This document shows positions 1-10,734 of a stretch of 11,387 bases of DNA, piece by piece. The stretch is taken from the IMG/VR virus record IMGVR_UViG_2563366866_000006; one strand, 5' to 3'. This stretch comes from a virus (taxonomy: Duplodnaviria; Heunggongvirae; Uroviricota; Caudoviricetes). The translations under genes and the position numbers were made by a program. The notes under the pieces are model-generated. The model was not told the DNA's origin and ran no database searches. It saw nothing but the letters and a program-made list of their open reading frames with translations. Within the stretch, counting starts at the first letter, position 1; the number at the start of each line of letters is the position of its first letter.

Positions 1-288
1 TTTAAGGGATTAATTCCTTCAAAAGTAAAATCTCGCCCGCAATGTTGTGACGATGACGCGATGATCATTTGCGGGTGCATGGCCCGTCTGAAAAATAACA
101 ACAGCGATTTGCATGATTTGTTAGTGGACTATTATGTCGGCGGCATGACTTTTATGGCGCTTGCGCGTAAGCATGGTAGATCTGATTGTTGGATTGGCAG
201 GATGCTCCAAAAAGCTGAGGGCGTAGTGGAGGGCATGCTGATGGTGTTGGATCTCAGATTGGAGATGGATGCTGATTGTTTGAGATAA
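1..288 (+). CDS. Late antiterminator Q (phage 21/82/DLP12 QuuD-like), C-terminal part; the 5' end lies outside the window
   Basis: Frame 1 is open from base 1 ([31 protein letters not shown]...) to the TAA at 286-288, so the 75-aa ORF in the track is only the tail of a longer protein. The Cys-rich [12 protein letters not shown] segment and the following sequence match my recollection of DLP12-type Q proteins. Its position directly upstream of the late promoter and lysis genes fits Q. Confidence 0.75.
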
Positions 289-386: not shown

Positions 387-415
387 AGCCAGCCTCCCCA
401 AAGGCTGGTTTTTTT
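387..415 (+). terminator. IS200 left-end hairpin with rho-independent-terminator shape (stem 389-394/403-408, loop tccccaaa, T-run 409-415)
   Basis: ccagcc...ggctgg is a perfect inverted repeat followed by seven T residues, read directly from the sequence. In IS200 this structure is known to block read-in transcription. Confidence 0.7.
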
Positions 416-425
416 GTGCACAGAA

Positions 426-448
426 AACCCCCAGCTAGGCTGGGGGTT
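426..448 (+). promoter_or_regulatory. IS200 tnpA 5' UTR stem-loop (aacccccagc-tag-gctgggggtt), probable translational control structure
   Basis: A perfect 10-bp stem with a 3-nt loop, read directly. Its C-rich arm is complementary to the AAGGGGG Shine-Dalgarno sequence just upstream of the tnpA start at 559. Confidence 0.55.
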
Positions 449-558
449 CCGGAAAGCTTTCAGCTTTGAGCCAGTTATTAAAACCCCTTTTGATTTGTTA
501 AAACACCTTGCGGTCTGGCAACTGCAAGTGTCAAACAAGAAATCAAAAGGGGGTCCCA

Positions 559-1017
559 ATGGGGAACGAAAAGAGCTTAGCGCACACCCGATGGAACTGT
601 AAATATCACATAGTTTTTGCGCCAAAATACCGAAGACAGGTGTTCTACAGAGAGAAGCGTAGAGCAATAGGCAGTATTTTGAGAAAGCTGTGTGAGTGGA
701 AAAGCGTACGGATTCTGGAAGCTGAATGCTGTGCAGATCATATCCATATGCTTGTGGAGATCCCGCCTAAAATGAGCGTATCCGGGTTTATGGGATATCT
801 GAAAGGGAAAAGCAGTCTGATGCTTTACGAGCAGTTTGGTGATTTGAAATTCAAATACAGGAACAGGGAGTTCTGGTGCAGAGGGTACTACGTCGATACA
901 GTGGGTAAGAACACGGCGAAGATACAGGATTACATAAAGCACCAGCTTGAAGAGGATAAAATGGGAGAGCAGTTATCGATTCCCTATCCGGGCAGCCCGT
1001 TTACGGGCCGTAAGTAA
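559..1017 (+). CDS. tnpA: IS200 transposase TnpA (HuH Y1 transposase, about 152 aa)
   Basis: Translation MGNEKSLAHTRWNCKYHIVFAPKYRR...HIHMLVEIPP...YIKHQLEEDK carries the HuH motif (HIH) and the catalytic Tyr region, and matches my memory of Salmonella/E. coli IS200 TnpA almost exactly. The start is placed at the internal ATG at 559, preceded by AAGGGGG, rather than at the ORF-track start at 508. Confidence 0.93.
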   Translation: MGNEKSLAHTRWNCKYHIVFAPKYRRQVFYREKRRAIGSILRKLCEWKSVRILEAECCADHIHMLVEIPPKMSVSGFMGYLKGKSSLMLYEQFGDLKFKYRNREFWCRGYYVDTVGKNTAKIQDYIKHQLEEDKMGEQLSIPYPGSPFTGRK

Positions 1018-1090
1018 CGAAGTTGGATGCAAATGTCAGATCGTGTGCGCCTGTTAGGGCGCGGCTGGTAAGAGAGCCTTATAGGCGCAT

Positions 1091-1127
1091 TTGAAAAACC
1101 TCCGGCTATGCCGGAGGATATTTATTT
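1091..1127. terminator. Bidirectional intrinsic terminator hairpin (cctccggc-tat-gccggagg), mainly serving the minus-strand lipocalin gene
   Basis: Perfect 8-bp GC-rich stem at 1099-1106/1110-1117. On the minus strand it is followed by TTTTTCAA, about 40 nt downstream of the lipocalin stop. On the plus strand it is followed by a weaker ATATTTATTT. Confidence 0.6.
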
Positions 1128-1155: not shown

Positions 1156-1680
1156 TTATTGTTTGACCCATAATAGTTCATTGACATTGAATCCCAATTT
1201 TTGAGCAGTACGCACATAGTCTGCTTTTACATTATCTGGAATAGTTGGAGTCCGTGCCAGAATCCATAGGTATTCTCTGTTCGGACCACTGACAAGAGCA
1301 TACTTATACTCATCATCCAGTTTGATTACATTATAGCCACCATAGAAGGGGCCAAAAAACGAAACCTTCAACGCTGCAGTTGTATTATCTCCTGTAAAGT
1401 ATGCTTTACCTTCGCTCTCGCTCCATTTGTTTTTCGTTGGGTCATATCCACGATTAAGTACACTAATCCCTCCGTCGTTCCGTTTCCCATAAGTGGCGCT
1501 GACCTGTTCCAGACCACGTTCAAATCGGTTCTCAAGCCGAGCTATTTCATACCATTTTCCGAGGTAGCGGTTGGTGTCAAAATTTGTAATCGGCTGCACA
1601 CCTTTAGGTGGTGTCGGGGCCTTACATGCTATCAGAGTGAAAGAGAGTGCAATGCCAGTCAACACAGGCCATAACTTCAT
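1156..1680 (-). CDS. Outer-membrane lipocalin lipoprotein, Blc family
   Basis: 174 aa. Signal peptide with a lipobox (FTLIAC, Cys19). Conserved lipocalin core YLGKWYEIARLENRFERGL...KVSFFGPFYGGYNVI...YLWILARTP closely parallels E. coli Blc. ATG at 1678-1680 with an AGGA about 8 nt upstream. Confidence 0.9.
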   Translation of the reverse strand: MKLWPVLTGIALSFTLIACKAPTPPKGVQPITNFDTNRYLGKWYEIARLENRFERGLEQVSATYGKRNDGGISVLNRGYDPTKNKWSESEGKAYFTGDNTTAALKVSFFGPFYGGYNVIKLDDEYKYALVSGPNREYLWILARTPTIPDNVKADYVRTAQKLGFNVNELLWVKQ

Positions 1681-1872
1681 AATATATCCTGTACTTTTGA
1701 TAGTTGAGAGTAAGTATTAAAGATAGATGATTACTACCGATCACCTAAAGAACTTTCCTACTATATTAGGAATAGTCCATAACAAAAAAATTGTCAGTGA
1801 TGACGGCAGAAAGGCAGTTTAGGTCGTGTACTACACTGTTAACCTGTTAATGAATTAGTCAAGGGGTAGGCA

Positions 1873-2832
1873 ATGATAAAAAAACCTGTCGTTGGGATCA
1901 GTGGTTGTTTGGCCGGTTCTTCTGTCCGTTTTGATGGTGGTCACAAAAGAGCTAGCTTTTTAATGGACAAATTACTGGAATGGGTAACATTCAAACCAGT
2001 ATGTCCGGAAATGGCTATAGGGCTTCCAGTTCCGCGTCCTGCTCTACGTCTTGTTCGCTCGGCGCAAGGAAATATACGGATGTGTTTCAGCCACGACCAG
2101 AATGAGGATGTTACAGAGAAAATGACAGAGTTTAGTCGTTCTTATCTTGACAAATTAAAGGATGTATCGGGATTTGTGGTTTGTGCAAAATCTCCTAGCT
2201 GTGGTATGGAACGCGTGCGTGTATATGATGAAAATGGTAATCGTGGTCGTAAAGATGGAGTGGGACTATTTACGAGCACGTTGATGGAAAGGTTTTCCTG
2301 GCTACCGGTTGAAGAGGATGGGCGACTACATGATCCAGTGCTTCGTGAAAACTTTGTTGAAAGAGTATTTGCTTTACATGAGCTCAATCATCTTTATAAA
2401 GCGAAATTATCAAGAAGGGAATTATTAGCTTTTCATAGCCGTTATAAGCTTCAGTTGTTGGCGCATAGCCAGGCCGGTTATAAAGAGATGGGGCCATTTG
2501 TGGCTGCAATACATGAGTGGGCAGACCTTGAATCATACTTTGAGGTGTATCGTGAGAAGCTGATGGCGATTCTCAGAAAACCTGCATCACGTAAAAATCA
2601 CACGAATGTGCTGATGCATATACAGGGATATTTTAGTAACTGCTTAAATACACGTCAGCGTAAAGAGTTGAGCGATGTTATACTTAACTATCGAGCTGGC
2701 ACGCTACCTCTTCTTGCGCCATTAACTTTGCTGAAGCATTACTTGGCAGAGTATCCTGATGATTATTTGCTTATACAGAATTACTTCCACCCCTATCCTG
2801 ATGAACTGGCTCTAAGACTCTTGGTGAACTAG
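1873..2832 (+). CDS. DUF523 (TudS-like [4Fe-4S] thio-nucleobase desulfidase domain) fused to DUF1722; YbgA-family protein
   Basis: 319 aa. N-terminal half has three Cys in the spacing expected for TudS cluster ligands (GISGCLAG Cys12, CPEM Cys44, CAKSPSCG Cys105), plus a fourth Cys at 110. C-terminal half resembles the helical DUF1722 domain. RBS AAGGGG lies 6-7 nt upstream of the ATG. Confidence 0.8.
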   Translation: MIKKPVVGISGCLAGSSVRFDGGHKRASFLMDKLLEWVTFKPVCPEMAIGLPVPRPALRLVRSAQGNIRMCFSHDQNEDVTEKMTEFSRSYLDKLKDVSGFVVCAKSPSCGMERVRVYDENGNRGRKDGVGLFTSTLMERFSWLPVEEDGRLHDPVLRENFVERVFALHELNHLYKAKLSRRELLAFHSRYKLQLLAHSQAGYKEMGPFVAAIHEWADLESYFEVYREKLMAILRKPASRKNHTNVLMHIQGYFSNCLNTRQRKELSDVILNYRAGTLPLLAPLTLLKHYLAEYPDDYLLIQNYFHPYPDELALRLLVN

Positions 2833-3150
2833 GCGTTTGGAATGCACCAACAAGATGATTTTCTCCTTAGAGAATGTTTACAATCGTAAAAACTTCACTA
2901 TGATATCTATAGTTGTACAGTTTGTAAAAAAATTCGGTTCATGCTTAAGGTAATGTTAATATGTTAATTAATGATTAATAATCAAGCAAGCCAAAAATAG
3001 TTCTGTTTAATCTAGTATTACATAAATATTTTAAAGAAAATATCAAAGTTCATGATGATATAATGAGATTTTTCTCATTGAAAATATGGCAATTTTAATA
3101 TTTCCACCTATACTTACTTAACTCAAATCTAATTATGTCAGGTGGATGGT

Positions 3151-3882
3151 ATGCCATGCATATGTTCTATCATTTTGGTTTTGAACTCGTTTGATATCCG
3201 GCTTGGTAAAGAAAAAATCTCTCTAAAAAAAGGAAGTGTTGTTGCTATAGAATACAATTTAAAAGTTTTCTTTTCTTCAAATAAAGATAATATAATGATC
3301 GTGGATATTGAAGAGAAAACAGTTAATGACTTCTTTAAAAACAATACACTCTCACCTTTTTCTGTAAGAAGATTTTATTCAGCATACTTGATAGTAAACT
3401 GTACAGACTATTCATTGTTAAAGAACTTGATAGGTTGCTTGAATTGTGATGGTGAAACTACGGCTGTAGTTAAAAATTCAATATTATTTGCATGTCTTGC
3501 TATTTTATCCTCGGAAAAAATGTTTCAGAGTTTTTTGTTTGGGTGTCTTAATAGTTTAGGAAGCAAAGTTAAGGCTATTATTCACTCGGACATATCTGCA
3601 GCATGGAGACTTTGTGATATTTCTTCAAGACTATGTCTGAGTGAAAGTTTGTTAAAAAGAAAACTAAAACACGAAGGCTTATCATTTAGCAAATTAATTC
3701 TTGAAGAACGAATGGTGATGGCTGAAAGGTTATTAAGCTACAATTTCTATCCTGTTGGGAAAGTTGCTAAAATATGTGGTTATGAAAGCGCGTCATATTT
3801 TATAAGTGTTTTCAGAAGATATTTTGGTGTTCCCCCCCATGAATATTCATCAAGATTTTTTTTAGAAAAAGGCAAGATGTAA
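3151..3882 (+). CDS. AraC/XylS-family transcriptional regulator (AppY/GadX/PatE-like), horizontally acquired
   Basis: C-terminal AraC-type double helix-turn-helix (...LCLSESLLKRKLKHEGLSFSKLILEERMVMAERLL...VGKVAKICGYESASYFISVFRRYFGVPPHEY). The gene and its 310-bp upstream region are strikingly AT-rich. ATG at 3151 with AGGTGG 5 nt upstream is preferred over the in-frame GTG at 3142 used by the ORF track. Confidence 0.85.
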   Translation: MPCICSIILVLNSFDIRLGKEKISLKKGSVVAIEYNLKVFFSSNKDNIMIVDIEEKTVNDFFKNNTLSPFSVRRFYSAYLIVNCTDYSLLKNLIGCLNCDGETTAVVKNSILFACLAILSSEKMFQSFLFGCLNSLGSKVKAIIHSDISAAWRLCDISSRLCLSESLLKRKLKHEGLSFSKLILEERMVMAERLLSYNFYPVGKVAKICGYESASYFISVFRRYFGVPPHEYSSRFFLEKGKM

Positions 3883-3943: not shown

Positions 3944-3973
3944 ACGCCAGAATAATCGCTGGCGTTTTTCTTT
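3944..3973 (+). terminator. Rho-independent terminator downstream of the AraC-family gene, upstream of the holin (possibly serving as tR')
   Basis: Stem acgccag (3944-3950) / ctggcgt (3959-3965) with loop aataatcg, followed by TTTTTCTTTT. Confidence 0.6.
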
Positions 3974-4049: not shown

Positions 4050-4265
4050 ATGAAATCCATGGACAAGTTAACAACGGGCATTGCCTACGGCACCTCTGCA
4101 GGCAGTGCTGGCTACTGGTTTTTACAGTGGCTTGATCAGGTCAGTCCGTCACAGTGGGCGGCGATTGGAGTGCTTGGAAGCCTTGTGTTGGGTTTTCTCA
4201 CTTATCTGACAAACCTTTATTTCAAGATTAAAGAAGATAAGCGTAAGGCTGCGAGAGGTGAATAA
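4050..4265 (+). CDS. S: Class II holin, phage 21 S21-type pinholin with dual-start motif (Met1/Met4)
   Basis: 71 aa, [53 protein letters not shown]..., matching S21/EssD as I recall them. Two transmembrane segments. The M-K-S-M start gives the antiholin (71 aa) and holin (68 aa) forms. Strong RBS GGAGGTGAGG. Confidence 0.95.
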
Positions 4266-4762
4266 TGTCGCCATCATTACGCAAGGCTGTAGCAGCTGCT
4301 ATTGGTGGTGGGGCTGTTGCCATAGCGTCTGTGCTCATCACTGGTCCGAGTGGTGACGATGGTCTGGAAGGTGTCAGCTACATACCATATAAAGATATTG
4401 TTGGTGTATGGACTGTATGTCACGGGCATACAGGAAAAGACATCATGCTCGGTAAAACGTATACCAAAGCAGAATGCAAAGCACTCTTGAATAAAGACCT
4501 TGCCACTGTCGCCAGACAAATTAACCCGTACATCAAAGTCGATATACCGGAAACAACGCGCGGCGCTCTTTACTCATTCGTTTACAACGTGGGTGCTGGC
4601 AATTTCAGAACATCGACGCTTCTTCGCAAAATAAACCAGGGCGATATCAAAGGCGCATGTGATCAGTTACGTCGCTGGACATATGCTGGCGGTAAGCAAT
4701 GGAAAGGTCTCATGACTCGTCGTGAGATTGAGCGTGAAATCTGTTTGTGGGGTCAGCAATGA
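4265..4762 (+). CDS. R: SAR (signal-anchor-release) endolysin, T4-lysozyme-like (GH24), phage 21 R21-type
   Basis: 165 aa. Gly/Ala-rich N-terminal SAR domain ([20 protein letters not shown]). Catalytic triad at the canonical positions E35, D44, T50. Start overlaps the holin stop. Confidence 0.95.
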
Positions 4763-5220
4763 ACAGAGTAACCGCGATTATCTCCGCTCTGGTTATCTGC
4801 ATCATCGTCTGCCTGTCATGGGCTGTTAATCATTACCGTGATAACGCCATTACCTACAAAGCCCAGCGCGACAAAAATGCCAGAGAACTGAAGCTGGCGA
4901 ACGCGGCAATTACTGACATGCAGATGCGTCAGCGTGATGTTGCTGCGCTCGATGCAAAATACACGAAGGAGTTAGCTGATGCGAAAGCTGAAAATGATGC
5001 TCTGCGTGATGATGTTGCCGCTGGTCGTCGTCGGTTGCACATCAAAGCAGTCTGTCAGTCAGTGCGTGAAGCCACCACCGCCTCCGGCGTGGATAATGCA
5101 GCCTCCCCCCGACTGGCAGACACCGCTGAACGGGATTATTTCACCCTCAGAGAGAGGCTGATCACGATGCAAAAACAACTGGAAGGAACCCAGAAGTATA
5201 TTAATGAGCAGTGCAGATAG
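4759..5220 (+). CDS. Rz: Rz inner-membrane spanin (i-spanin)
   Basis: 153 aa from the ATG at 4759 ([21 protein letters not shown]...), with an N-terminal transmembrane helix and coiled-coil periplasmic domain. ATGA overlap with the endolysin stop. The ORF-track start at 4747 is a GTG four codons upstream. Confidence 0.9.
4979..5161 (+). CDS. Rz1: Rz1 outer-membrane lipoprotein spanin (o-spanin), embedded in the +1 frame of Rz
   Basis: 60 aa, [24 protein letters not shown]... with lipobox VVGC and a proline-rich stretch ([16 protein letters not shown]). Lies entirely inside Rz, as in lambda and phage 21. Confidence 0.9.
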
Positions 5221-5223
5221 AGC

Positions 5224-5241
5224 TGCCCATATCGATGGGCA
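5224..5241. terminator. Hairpin between the convergent Rz and bor genes (tgcccat-atcg-atgggca), possible bidirectional terminator
   Basis: Perfect 7-bp inverted repeat read directly. No strong T-run on either side, so terminator activity is uncertain. Confidence 0.3.
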
Positions 5242-5251
5242 ACTCATGCAA

Positions 5252-5545
5252 TTATTGTGAGCAATAGACACGCGCTTCCAGCGGAGTATAAATGCCTAAA
5301 GTAATAAAACCGAGCAATCCATTTACGAATGTTTGCTGGGTTTCTGTTTTAACAACATTTTCTGCGCCGCCACAAATTTTGGCTGCATCAACAGTTTTCT
5401 CCTGTCCAATTCCCGAAACGAAGAAGTGATGGGTGATGGTTTCCTTTGGTGTTACTGCTGTCGGTTTGTTTCCAACAGTAAACGTCTGTTGAGCACATCC
5501 TGTAATAAGCATTGCCAGAGCGGCAGAAAACAACATTTTTTTCAT
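5252..5545 (-). CDS. bor: Bor lipoprotein (serum-resistance, lysogenic-conversion protein)
   Basis: 97 aa from the ATG at 5543-5545 (MKKMLFSAALAMLITGCAQQTFTV...GLLGFITLGIYTPLEARVYCSQ), near-identical to lambda Bor as I recall it. Lipobox ITGC. The ORF-track start at 5593 is a longer upstream extension that I reject. Confidence 0.92.
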   Translation of the reverse strand: MKKMLFSAALAMLITGCAQQTFTVGNKPTAVTPKETITHHFFVSGIGQEKTVDAAKICGGAENVVKTETQQTFVNGLLGFITLGIYTPLEARVYCSQ

Positions 5546-5904
5546 CTTATTATCCTGCATTGTTAAAAACGGCAGAATCCTATGTGACAACAATTAAACG
5601 ATAGTTAAATGGATTGATGAAAATTAAAACTATATAGGTGGATGCTCAGCCTATTGGAGGAGGGGGGCACTCAGAATCCTGTGGAATGAAATAAACCGCT
5701 CTTTCTGTCCATTACCCTTTTAGCTGCGCTGTATCGTCGCCGTATTCCCGCATTAACCATGACCGTAGCCCGACGGGGAATTCCTTCTGCGTGAGTGTGC
5801 GGGAATAATCAAAAACGATGCACACCGGGTTTTACTGTGCTGACAGACGCAGGGTTACCCTCATAGTCGCTTTTCCGGTGCGATGGTGGAAGAAACCGGG
5901 ATGT

Positions 5905-6099
5905 TTATTCATCATCACTTTGGATTGATGTACATGCTCTCTTTTCTGACGTTAGTCTCCGACGGCAGGCTTCAATGACCCAGGCTGAGAAATTCCCAGA
6001 CCCTTTTTGCTCAAGAGCGATGTTAATTTGTTCAATCATTTGGTTAGGAAAGCGGATGTTGCGGGTTGTTGTTCTGCGGGTTCTGTTCTTAGTTGACAT
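5905..6099 (-). CDS. ylcI: Small YlcI-like (DUF3950) protein, probably a ribbon-helix-helix DNA-binding protein with an arginine-rich N-terminus
   Basis: 64 aa, MSTKNRTRRTTTRNIRFPNQMIEQINIALEQKGSGNFSAWVIEACRRRL.... The pattern (beta-strand RNIRF, then two helices) fits an RHH fold. A homologue sits just upstream of the Nu1 homologue in DLP12 by my recollection. Weak RBS. Confidence 0.65.
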   Translation of the reverse strand: MSTKNRTRRTTTRNIRFPNQMIEQINIALEQKGSGNFSAWVIEACRRRLTSEKRACTSIQSDDE

Positions 6100-6487: not shown

Positions 6488-7007
6488 ATGGAAGTCAACA
6501 AAAAGCAGCTGGCTGACATTTTCGGTGCGAGTATCCGTACCATTCAGAACTGGCAGGAACAGGGAATGCCCGTTCTGCGAGGCGGTGGCAAGGGTAATGA
6601 GGTGCTTTATGACTCTGCCGCCGTCATAAAATGGTATGCCGAAAGGGATTCTGAAATTGAGAACGAAAAGCTGCGCCGGGAGGTTGAAGAACTGCGGCAG
6701 GCCAGCGAGGCAGATCTCCAGCCAGGAACTATTGAGTACGAACGCCATCGACTTACGCGTGCGCAGGCCGACGCACAGGAACTGAAGAATGCCAGAGACT
6801 CCGCTGAAGTGGTGGAAACCGCATTCTGTACTTTCGTGTTGTCGCGGATCGCAGGTGAAATTGCCAGTATTCTCGACGGGCTCCCCCTGTCGGTGCAGCG
6901 GCGTTTTCCGGAACTGGAAAACCGACATGTTGATTTCCTGAAACGGGATATCATCAAAGCCATGAACAAAGCAGCCGCGCTGGATGAACTGATACCGGGG
7001 TTGCTGA

Positions 7008-7033
<26 letters not shown>
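6488..7033 (+). CDS. nu1: Terminase small subunit Nu1
   Basis: 181 aa, MEVNKKQLADIFGASIRTIQNWQEQGMPVLRGGGKGNEVLYDSAAVIKWYAERD..., essentially the lambda Nu1 sequence from memory, with an N-terminal winged-HTH. Confidence 0.97.

Positions 7034-10714
<3,681 letters not shown>

Positions 10715-10734
<20 letters not shown>

Follow-up and report, generated by a model that had tools for sequence, protein, structure and literature searches.

An Escherichia coli prophage cassette between Q and the lysis genes encodes RudS_vir, a probable tRNA 4-thiouridine desulfidase

The 11,387 nucleotides of IMG/VR record IMGVR_UViG_2563366866_000006 analysed here (hereafter, the window) contain, among the late-region genes of a prophage, an open reading frame for a two-domain fusion protein. 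The locus raises two questions: what reaction this protein catalyzes, and at which stage, in the lysogen or after induction, the prophage would make use of it. The reading frame runs from ATG to TAG through 319 codons with no internal stops, and a Shine-Dalgarno-like AAGGGG lies a few bases 5' of the start. Profile searches against Pfam assigned its N-terminal half to PF04463 (2-thiouracil desulfurase, formerly DUF523; 137.7 bits, cut-off 34.7) and its C-terminal half to PF08349 (DUF1722; 138.8 bits, cut-off 22.5), both with E values of about 1e-40, in agreement with the DUF523-DUF1722 fusion proposed in the first-pass annotation, which was made from the sequence without database searches. The gene and its parts are as follows.

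1873..2832, plus strand: rudS (RudS_vir), 319-aa TudS-DUF1722 fusion, probable tRNA 4-thiouridine desulfidase (open reading frame, Pfam, and identity to 1H12 gp66)
1891..2319, plus strand: TudS/DUF523 catalytic domain, residues 7-149 (PF04463, E 3.6e-40)
2446..2799, plus strand: DUF1722 domain, residues 192-309, all-helical (PF08349, E 1.3e-40)
1906-1908, 2002-2004 and 2200-2202, plus strand: codons of the predicted cluster ligands Cys12, Cys44 and Cys110 (alignment to TudS)

The encoded protein is identical, over 319 of 319 residues, to gp66 of Escherichia phage 1H12 (H3V29_gp66, NC_049947). The rudS genes of the window and of 1H12 show 0 differences in 960 nt, and the 2.9 kb surrounding rudS match eleven records of temperate lambda-like coliphages, 1H12 included, at 99.8-100% identity. 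The 1H12 protein is the "RudS_vir" of Jamontas et al. (Nucleic Acids Res 2024; PMC11417400), with Cys12, Cys44 and Cys110 listed as conserved in Table 1 of that work, where RudS is defined as a fusion of the TudS desulfidase with DUF1722 that takes 4-thiouridine (s4U) off tRNA. Judged by its sequence, the window protein belongs to RudS and is the characterised member RudS_vir itself, and we are highly confident that the gene product is this two-domain tRNA de-modifying enzyme. The molecular function of RudS_vir is already known, and no new enzyme is added here. The function had been put down in the first-pass annotation as inference only; in fact, the identical protein has been expressed and assayed, and its C12A, C44A and C110A mutants, whose constructs are given in the supplement, were built and tested (PMC11417400).

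The same annotation placed the three cluster ligands at cysteines 12, 44 and 105. The cysteines of RudS_vir are residues 12, 44, 71, 104, 110 and 257, and residue 105 is an alanine. In a phmmer alignment to TudS (6z92), C10, C43 and C104 of TudS pair with C12, C44 and C110 of RudS_vir, and Cys110 lies within the motif S107-P-S109-C110-G. Across 129 diverse full-length representatives of the family, which are 34-55% identical to RudS_vir, Cys12 is conserved in 128, Cys44 in 127 and Cys110 in 126, compared with only 10 for the nearby Cys104. Thus, the proposal of an Fe-S site and its first two ligands hold, but the third [4Fe-4S] ligand, as identified by the alignment, is Cys110 and not residue 105.

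The remaining active-site residues are conserved as well. E46, R55, S107 and S109 have the same spacing to the Cys ligands as E51, R60, S111 and S113 of RudS_KT (PP_0741 of Pseudomonas putida KT2440), and are kept in 128, 128, 128 and 121 of the 129 homologues, respectively. The counterpart of R24-Y25-N26 of RudS_KT is R19-F20-D21; F and D occur often at these columns across the family, and RudS_KT with the Y25F mutation behaves like the wild type (PMC11417400). In the C-terminal half, S239-R240 (motif A-S-R-K-N-H-T-N) are the putative counterparts of S243-R244 of RudS_KT, a correspondence by offset alone; this pair of columns contains S or T in 106 and R in 75 of the 129 homologues.

An AlphaFold2 model of RudS_vir, built with the 129 diverse homologues as input (mean pLDDT 96.8, pTM 0.93), is alpha/beta in its N-terminal half and entirely helical in its C-terminal half (helices 155-300). 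For the N-terminal half, Foldseek retrieved the TudS crystal structures 6z92, 6z93 and 6z96 with a probability of 1.00 and a TM score of 0.75-0.77 on the target, so that the domain assignment is sustained by structure prediction as well. The sole significant matches in the PDB are five TudS entries (6z92, 6z93 and the 6z94-series; TM 0.71-0.77 normalised on TudS), and Foldseek against the PDB found no solved structural relative of the DUF1722 half.

Both halves of RudS_vir have stand-alone relatives. TudS (PDB 6z92/6z96) has the fold, the three-Cys [4Fe-4S] site and the Glu/Ser/Ser residues in common with RudS_vir, but is a single-domain desulfidase of thiouracil and 4-thio-UMP, about 150-166 aa long, with about 27% sequence identity to RudS_vir. 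A stand-alone TudS identity is ruled out, RudS_vir being a 319-aa fusion and growth on 2-thiouracil being conferred by no RudS. The C-terminal half is homologous to E. coli YbgA (b0707), a stand-alone DUF1722 protein of about 169 aa that lacks a catalytic domain and whose gene is adjacent to the photolyase gene phr; the NCBIfam model of YbgA, NF007549, matched RudS_vir with an E value of 3.4e-56. This homology accounts for the RefSeq name of the rudS product, 'YbgA family protein'. The match, at 189.6 bits against a cut-off of 237 and confined to residues 160-315, rules out a YbgA equivalog. In PHROGs, rudS falls into phrog_3275, labelled 'unknown function'.

Among the full-length relatives, RudS_KT and RudS_ST (STM1389/ORF319 of Salmonella LT2) have the architecture, the Cys triad, the Glu/Arg/Ser/Ser set and the conversion of s4U to U in common with RudS_vir, and in RudS_ST even the numbering of the cysteines (12/44/110) is the same. 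RudS_vir differs from both in an apparently lower tRNA activity per unit protein. The genes for RudS_KT and RudS_ST are found in light-responsive or MerR/LitR-controlled settings, whereas the window copy is located in a prophage, next to genes for a lipocalin and an AraC-family regulator.

The published biochemistry of RudS rests on overexpression of six rudS genes in E. coli BL21(DE3), which lowered tRNA s4U 4.7- to 26-fold as measured by LC-MS/MS; every variant tested acted on tRNA, and the Cys-to-Ala mutants were inactive, with C47A of RudS_TT (T. thermophilus) as the single stated exception (PMC11417400). For RudS_vir itself, the evidence is the loss of s4U on overexpression in vivo and its dependence on the three cysteines; the in vitro assays, tRNA binding, docking and UVA test were those of RudS_KT only (PMC11417400). 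The mechanism of RudS_KT was derived from docking, molecular dynamics and mutagenesis: three cysteines ligate the [4Fe-4S] cluster, whose free iron takes up the sulfur of the substrate; Arg60, Ser111 and Ser113 orient Glu51, which in turn activates water; and DUF1722 contacts the anticodon arm via Ser243 and Arg244 (PMC11417400). DUF1722, which the first-pass annotation gave as a domain with no known function, has accordingly become the tRNA (anticodon-region) binding module of RudS (PMC11417400). With RudS_KT overexpressed, moreover, growth after UVA was delayed by about 60 min instead of about 105 min (PMC11417400); together with the removal of s4U from tRNA, this is in line with the 4-thiouridine and near-UV theme of that annotation. 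The label of a thio-nucleobase metabolism enzyme is superseded, RudS being primarily a tRNA s4U eraser with no rescue on 2-thiouracil (PMC11417400).

In RudS_vir, the TudS domain would carry the [4Fe-4S] cluster on Cys12, Cys44 and Cys110, with the free fourth iron binding the sulfur of 4-thiouridine; Glu46, positioned by Arg55, Ser107 and Ser109, would activate a water molecule, oxygen would replace sulfur, and s4U8 of tRNA would become uridine. The helical C-terminal DUF1722 domain would dock on the anticodon arm, and RudS_vir would therefore act on whole tRNA, not on free bases.

The surroundings of rudS bear on when such an enzyme might be made. The window comes from a relative of 1H12 borne on an E. 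coli chromosome and covers, of this lambdoid prophage, the right end and the beginning of the late region, with Q upstream of rudS and the genes for holin, lysozyme, Rz, bor/iss, terminase and portal downstream, in agreement with the late-region location given in the first-pass annotation. The features outside rudS are listed in order.

1..288, plus strand: 3' part of antiterminator gene Q, cut by the window start (PF06530, E 3.1e-19; annotated Q in 1H12 and E. coli genomes)
387..415, plus strand: tR'-like intrinsic terminator just 3' of Q, conserved in 1H12
416..1126, plus strand: 711-bp IS200C insertion (ends accurate to a base or so) between tR' and blc (Y1_Tnp/IS200 transposase)
426-549: STnc490, inside the IS200 copy (Rfam scan)
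1156..1680, minus strand: blc-like outer-membrane lipocalin gene, divergent from rudS (PF08212, E 2.2e-43)
1681..1872, no strand assigned: divergent blc-rudS intergenic region, likely site of the cassette's own promoters
2833-3150: AT-rich spacer after rudS, 318 bp
3151..3882, plus strand: AraC-family (YdeO/GadX-like) regulator gene, GC about 30%, 3' of rudS (HTH_18 and HTH_AraC)
3944..3965, plus strand: terminator-like GC hairpin with T-run, between the cassette and holin S
4050-4265, plus strand: lysis gene for holin S (open reading frame and annotation of the identical region)
4265-4762, plus strand: lysis gene for lysozyme R
4747-5220, plus strand: Rz, with embedded Rz1 at 4979-5161; the lysis genes (4050..5220) are the downstream end of the Q-to-S slot
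5252-5593, minus strand: bor/iss
5905-6099, minus strand: ylcI
6488-7033, plus strand: terminase small subunit
7008-8933, plus strand: terminase large subunit
8930-9136, plus strand: head-tail joining protein
9133-10734, plus strand: portal

The cassette of blc, rudS and the AraC-family gene, like its position between Q and the holin gene, is shared with the RudS_vir locus of 1H12. The window differs from that locus in carrying IS200C, which is absent from 1H12 and from 80 of 80 viral loci; this insertion is lineage-specific and lies outside the cassette. The GC content of the cassette is 28-44%, compared with 53-62% in the morphogenesis genes. The blc-like gene scores 315.5 bits with the NCBIfam Blc subfamily (cut-off 267). 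The top NCBIfam match of the AraC-like gene is YdeO, far below the cut-off (112.7 bits against 348), and outside the cassette its closest homologues in phages reach only 52% identity; hence, this gene is left as 'AraC family, YdeO/GadX-like'. PatE, PsrA and PsrB of EHEC were also considered as candidate identities of this gene.

Bacterial rudS genes have been tied to light through a MerR/LitR regulator and photolyase genes. Neither the window nor 25 kb of the identical prophage contains a MerR or photolyase gene, and a light-responsive LitR/MerR-PhrB-RudS operon was rejected for this locus, where the neighbours of rudS are the genes for the Blc lipocalin, the AraC-family regulator, Q and the lysis proteins. 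Nor were MerR or photolyase genes seen beside chromosomal enterobacterial rudS in the contexts viewed (Citrobacter braakii, and a Salmonella Derby remnant by ttcA). Near rudS, the Rfam scan detected neither a riboswitch nor any other RNA element, the window contains no tRNA genes, and the phiv142-3 orf10 primer sequence (PMC7724020) has no match in it. A search of the literature on YbgA, prophages and lipocalins returned nothing relevant (bioRxiv 2026.05.27.728231 deals with host lipocalin-2, and PMC7724020 with other prophage genes), and in the literature searched no paper joins RudS and prophages or covers the expression or physiology of a prophage RudS.

Matches to rudS were detected in 1082 of 5426 complete E. 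coli genomes, with identity of at least 99% in 110 genomes and of 90-95% in 971, and 1118 of the 1120 sites are chromosomal. E. coli has been stated in the literature to have no RudS; this is true of K-12 only. All five E. coli genome contexts inspected are lambdoid prophages with the gene order Q, blc, rudS, (AraC), holin, including DLP12-like, Qin-like and defective elements, and rudS sits between Q and the holin gene in all E. coli and coliphage contexts examined. In the IMG/VR prophage contigs, rudS is intact with all seven key residues in 80 of 80, blc is full length and on the opposite strand to rudS in 79 of 80, and Q is adjacent in 79 of 80; the AraC gene is full length in 62 of the 80, partial in 14 and absent from 4. 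More generally, the AraC-like gene is frequently frameshifted, partial or missing in relatives. The closest proteins outside E. coli are chromosomal enterobacterial RudS (about 76% identity), and the family comprises 1175 cluster representatives (50% identity) at E<=1e-30. Salmonella prophage contigs carry rudS too, in a different genomic slot.

Could rudS be a mere passenger, hitch-hiking without any function that is under selection in E. coli or in the phage? The cassette is often hit by mobile elements (IS200C here, IS2 and IS1 in relatives), and the AraC gene has decayed. However, a comparison of two E. coli prophage alleles yielded a dN/dS of 0.11 for rudS at a dS of 0.29, and the gene is intact, with its catalytic residues complete, in all 80 viral loci and is matched in 1082 of the 5426 complete genomes. 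Because of the low dN/dS and the 80 intact copies, rudS appears to be maintained by selection, unlike its AraC neighbour; the passenger reading is already disfavoured, and we consider it very improbable. It is also improbable, if somewhat less so, that RudS_vir is mainly a TudS-like salvage or detoxification desulfidase of free 4-thiouracil, 4-thiouridine or s4UMP, with its tRNA activity a side effect of overexpression. The TudS fold of the catalytic domain, with identical active-site residues, is compatible with such a role, as is the outcome of uracil-auxotroph rescue on 4-thiouracil, where RudS proteins acted after a lag or not at all and the lag of RudS_vir was the shortest (PMC11417400). 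Moreover, the level of RudS_vir protein was high, yet its tRNA desulfidation 'appeared to be lower' than this level would predict (PMC11417400). Given the low removal of s4U and the shortest lag, the preference of RudS_vir for tRNA over the free base is less clear-cut than that of RudS_KT. Nevertheless, no RudS equalled TudS in the rescue and none allowed growth on 2-thiouracil, and stand-alone TudS and YbgA left tRNA s4U unchanged, whereas all the fusions lowered it (PMC11417400). Between the two alleles, the DUF1722 half is more constrained than the catalytic half (dN/dS 0.07 and 0.19, respectively), which would be unexpected if DUF1722 were dispensable.

With RudS_vir taken as a tRNA de-modifying enzyme, the stage of its use has to be considered. 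We propose that rudS is accessory cargo, part of a blc, rudS and AraC-regulator cassette that occupies the Q-to-lysis slot of lambdoid prophages. Because rudS is co-oriented with the late operon, Q-modified polymerase should read through it, so that rudS would be included in Q-antiterminated late transcription; perhaps it also has its own promoter in the lysogen. E. coli has ThiI but no chromosomal rudS, and the prophage copy would be a way to lower the photosensitive s4U of its tRNA, possibly blunting the delay in growth and the stringent response that UVA triggers. In Salmonella, s4U has been reported to protect against near-UV killing, and the loss of s4U is therefore not obviously beneficial. 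A possible, although rather unlikely, alternative to lysogenic conversion is that the same enzyme serves the lytic cycle: RudS would be produced in a Q-dependent manner after induction (for example, by sunlight, with its SOS-inducing UV and its UVA), newly made tRNA would stay free of s4U crosslinks, and translation of late phage proteins would continue. The position of rudS 3' of Q and the tR'-like terminator, on the strand shared with the lysis and morphogenesis genes, is consistent with this scenario, and so is the lack of any predicted terminator from tR' to rudS in 1H12. Against it, the only terminator-like hairpin of the cassette follows the AraC gene (3944-3965), the cassette is retained in defective prophages whose terminase or tail genes are gone, and the conserved divergent spacer fits an autonomously expressed cassette. 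This blc-rudS spacer is 89.6% identical between two E. coli prophage alleles, compared with about 76% at the synonymous sites of rudS. It contains a single weak sigma-70-like match (1704-1731), and promoter-like matches are not above chance (12 found, 11.6 expected from shuffled sequence). The cassette lies between Q/tR' and S, as is the case for a lambdoid 'moron', with a hairpin at its end and promoter matches at the chance level; the conservation of the spacer and the hairpin after the AraC gene fit a 'moron' that would be autonomously expressed.

Lysogenic conversion, a role already suggested in the first-pass annotation alongside one in phage-host interaction, is the other use that we consider, and the proposal is a tentative one: RudS_vir may be a true lysogenic-conversion factor, with its own promoter in the blc-rudS spacer, possibly regulated by the AraC-family protein, that would keep s4U low in about 20% of E. 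coli.

About one fifth of the complete E. coli genomes match prophage rudS, and all copies examined are intact and apparently under purifying selection. This prevalence is relevant to studies of s4U, UVA growth delay and the stringent response in natural isolates, and the RefSeq and PHROGs labels of the gene could become RudS. The finding raises the question of why temperate phages carry an eraser of a tRNA modification. If RudS_vir is indeed a conversion factor, lysogens would differ in UVA growth delay, in the stringent (ppGpp) response and perhaps in sunlight-triggered prophage induction, and the cassette would represent a phage-delivered rewiring of the tRNA-based light sensor of the host.

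In the window, an insertion sequence is located between the antiterminator gene Q and the lipocalin gene blc, in the stretch that Q-dependent late transcription passes through. This IS200C copy directly follows the T-run of the tR'-like terminator and comprises the following elements:

416-1126, IS200C copy, 711 bp, between Q and blc
426-549, STnc490 (Rfam), inside the IS200C copy
about 559-1017, tnpA of the IS200C copy

Given this position, the IS200C copy may influence how rudS and the lysis genes are expressed late. The insertion is absent from Escherichia phage 1H12, which carries an identical rudS, and from each of the 80 IMG/VR relatives. The same insertion is present in only one genome assembly of the collection, that of E. 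coli CB7286 (NZ_CM144246.1; locus L092, represented by two records, H63 and H64). CB7286 additionally harbors an IS2 between blc and rudS (7878-9208 of L092, equivalent to window position ~1877); no IS2 is present between these genes in the window. The IS2 of CB7286 terminates directly at the rudS start codon, so that rudS is cut off from its native upstream region. Some E. coli genomes contain disrupted or split copies of rudS (H29, H37 and H70), including an IS1 insertion within the gene; where rudS is fragmented, the pieces bear individual annotations, namely 'DUF523 domain-containing', 'DUF1722 domain-containing' or '2-thiouracil desulfurase family protein'.

The other features of the window considered here are a codon within rudS, the regulator gene downstream of it, and two genes at the lysis cassette:

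2182-2184, codon of RudS Cys104, six residues ahead of ligand Cys110
3151-3882, AraC-family (YdeO/GadX-like) regulator gene, GC content only about 30%
4979-5161, + strand, Rz1 lipoprotein ORF, embedded in Rz
5252-5593, - strand, Bor/Iss-type serum-resistance lipoprotein gene, just past the lysis cassette

Cys104 is probably the residue that the first-pass annotation listed as Cys105 among the cluster ligands. It is invariant in all 14 aligned enterobacterial RudS sequences; across the wider RudS family, this column contains Cys in 10 of 129 sequences, and mostly Lys, Met or another residue. In many relatives in which rudS is intact, the AraC-family gene carries a frameshift, is incomplete, has an IS1 in its place or is missing; it belongs, at class level only, to the broad group of AraC-like prophage regulators that includes PatE, PsrA/B and AppY. 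The Bor/Iss gene and the embedded Rz1 are ordinary lambdoid features; together with blc, they amount to three lipoprotein genes within 4.5 kb.

A distinct, Salmonella-type rudS occupies other genomic slots. In Salmonella Derby and metagenome contigs (L006-L008), its setting looks like a prophage remnant, with an integrase fragment and DUF1367. The remnant is directly adjoined by ttcA, the tRNA 2-thiocytidine synthase gene, which makes two genes related to tRNA thiolation neighbors; this adjacency probably merely reflects a Rac-type attachment site. The same type of rudS is found at 5001-5960 of six predicted prophage contigs of about 38-44 kb from IMG/VR (L093-L098), the encoded Salmonella-type RudS being 98% identical to P0041 and 74% identical to the window protein. 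Here, the slot differs from that in the window, rudS being located 3' of replication-region genes and ahead of a nin/Q-like region, and in L093, the single locus read, the flanks of rudS contain neither blc nor an AraC gene for about 1 kb in each direction. The different location of the Salmonella-type rudS on predicted prophage contigs suggests that temperate phages acquired rudS independently.
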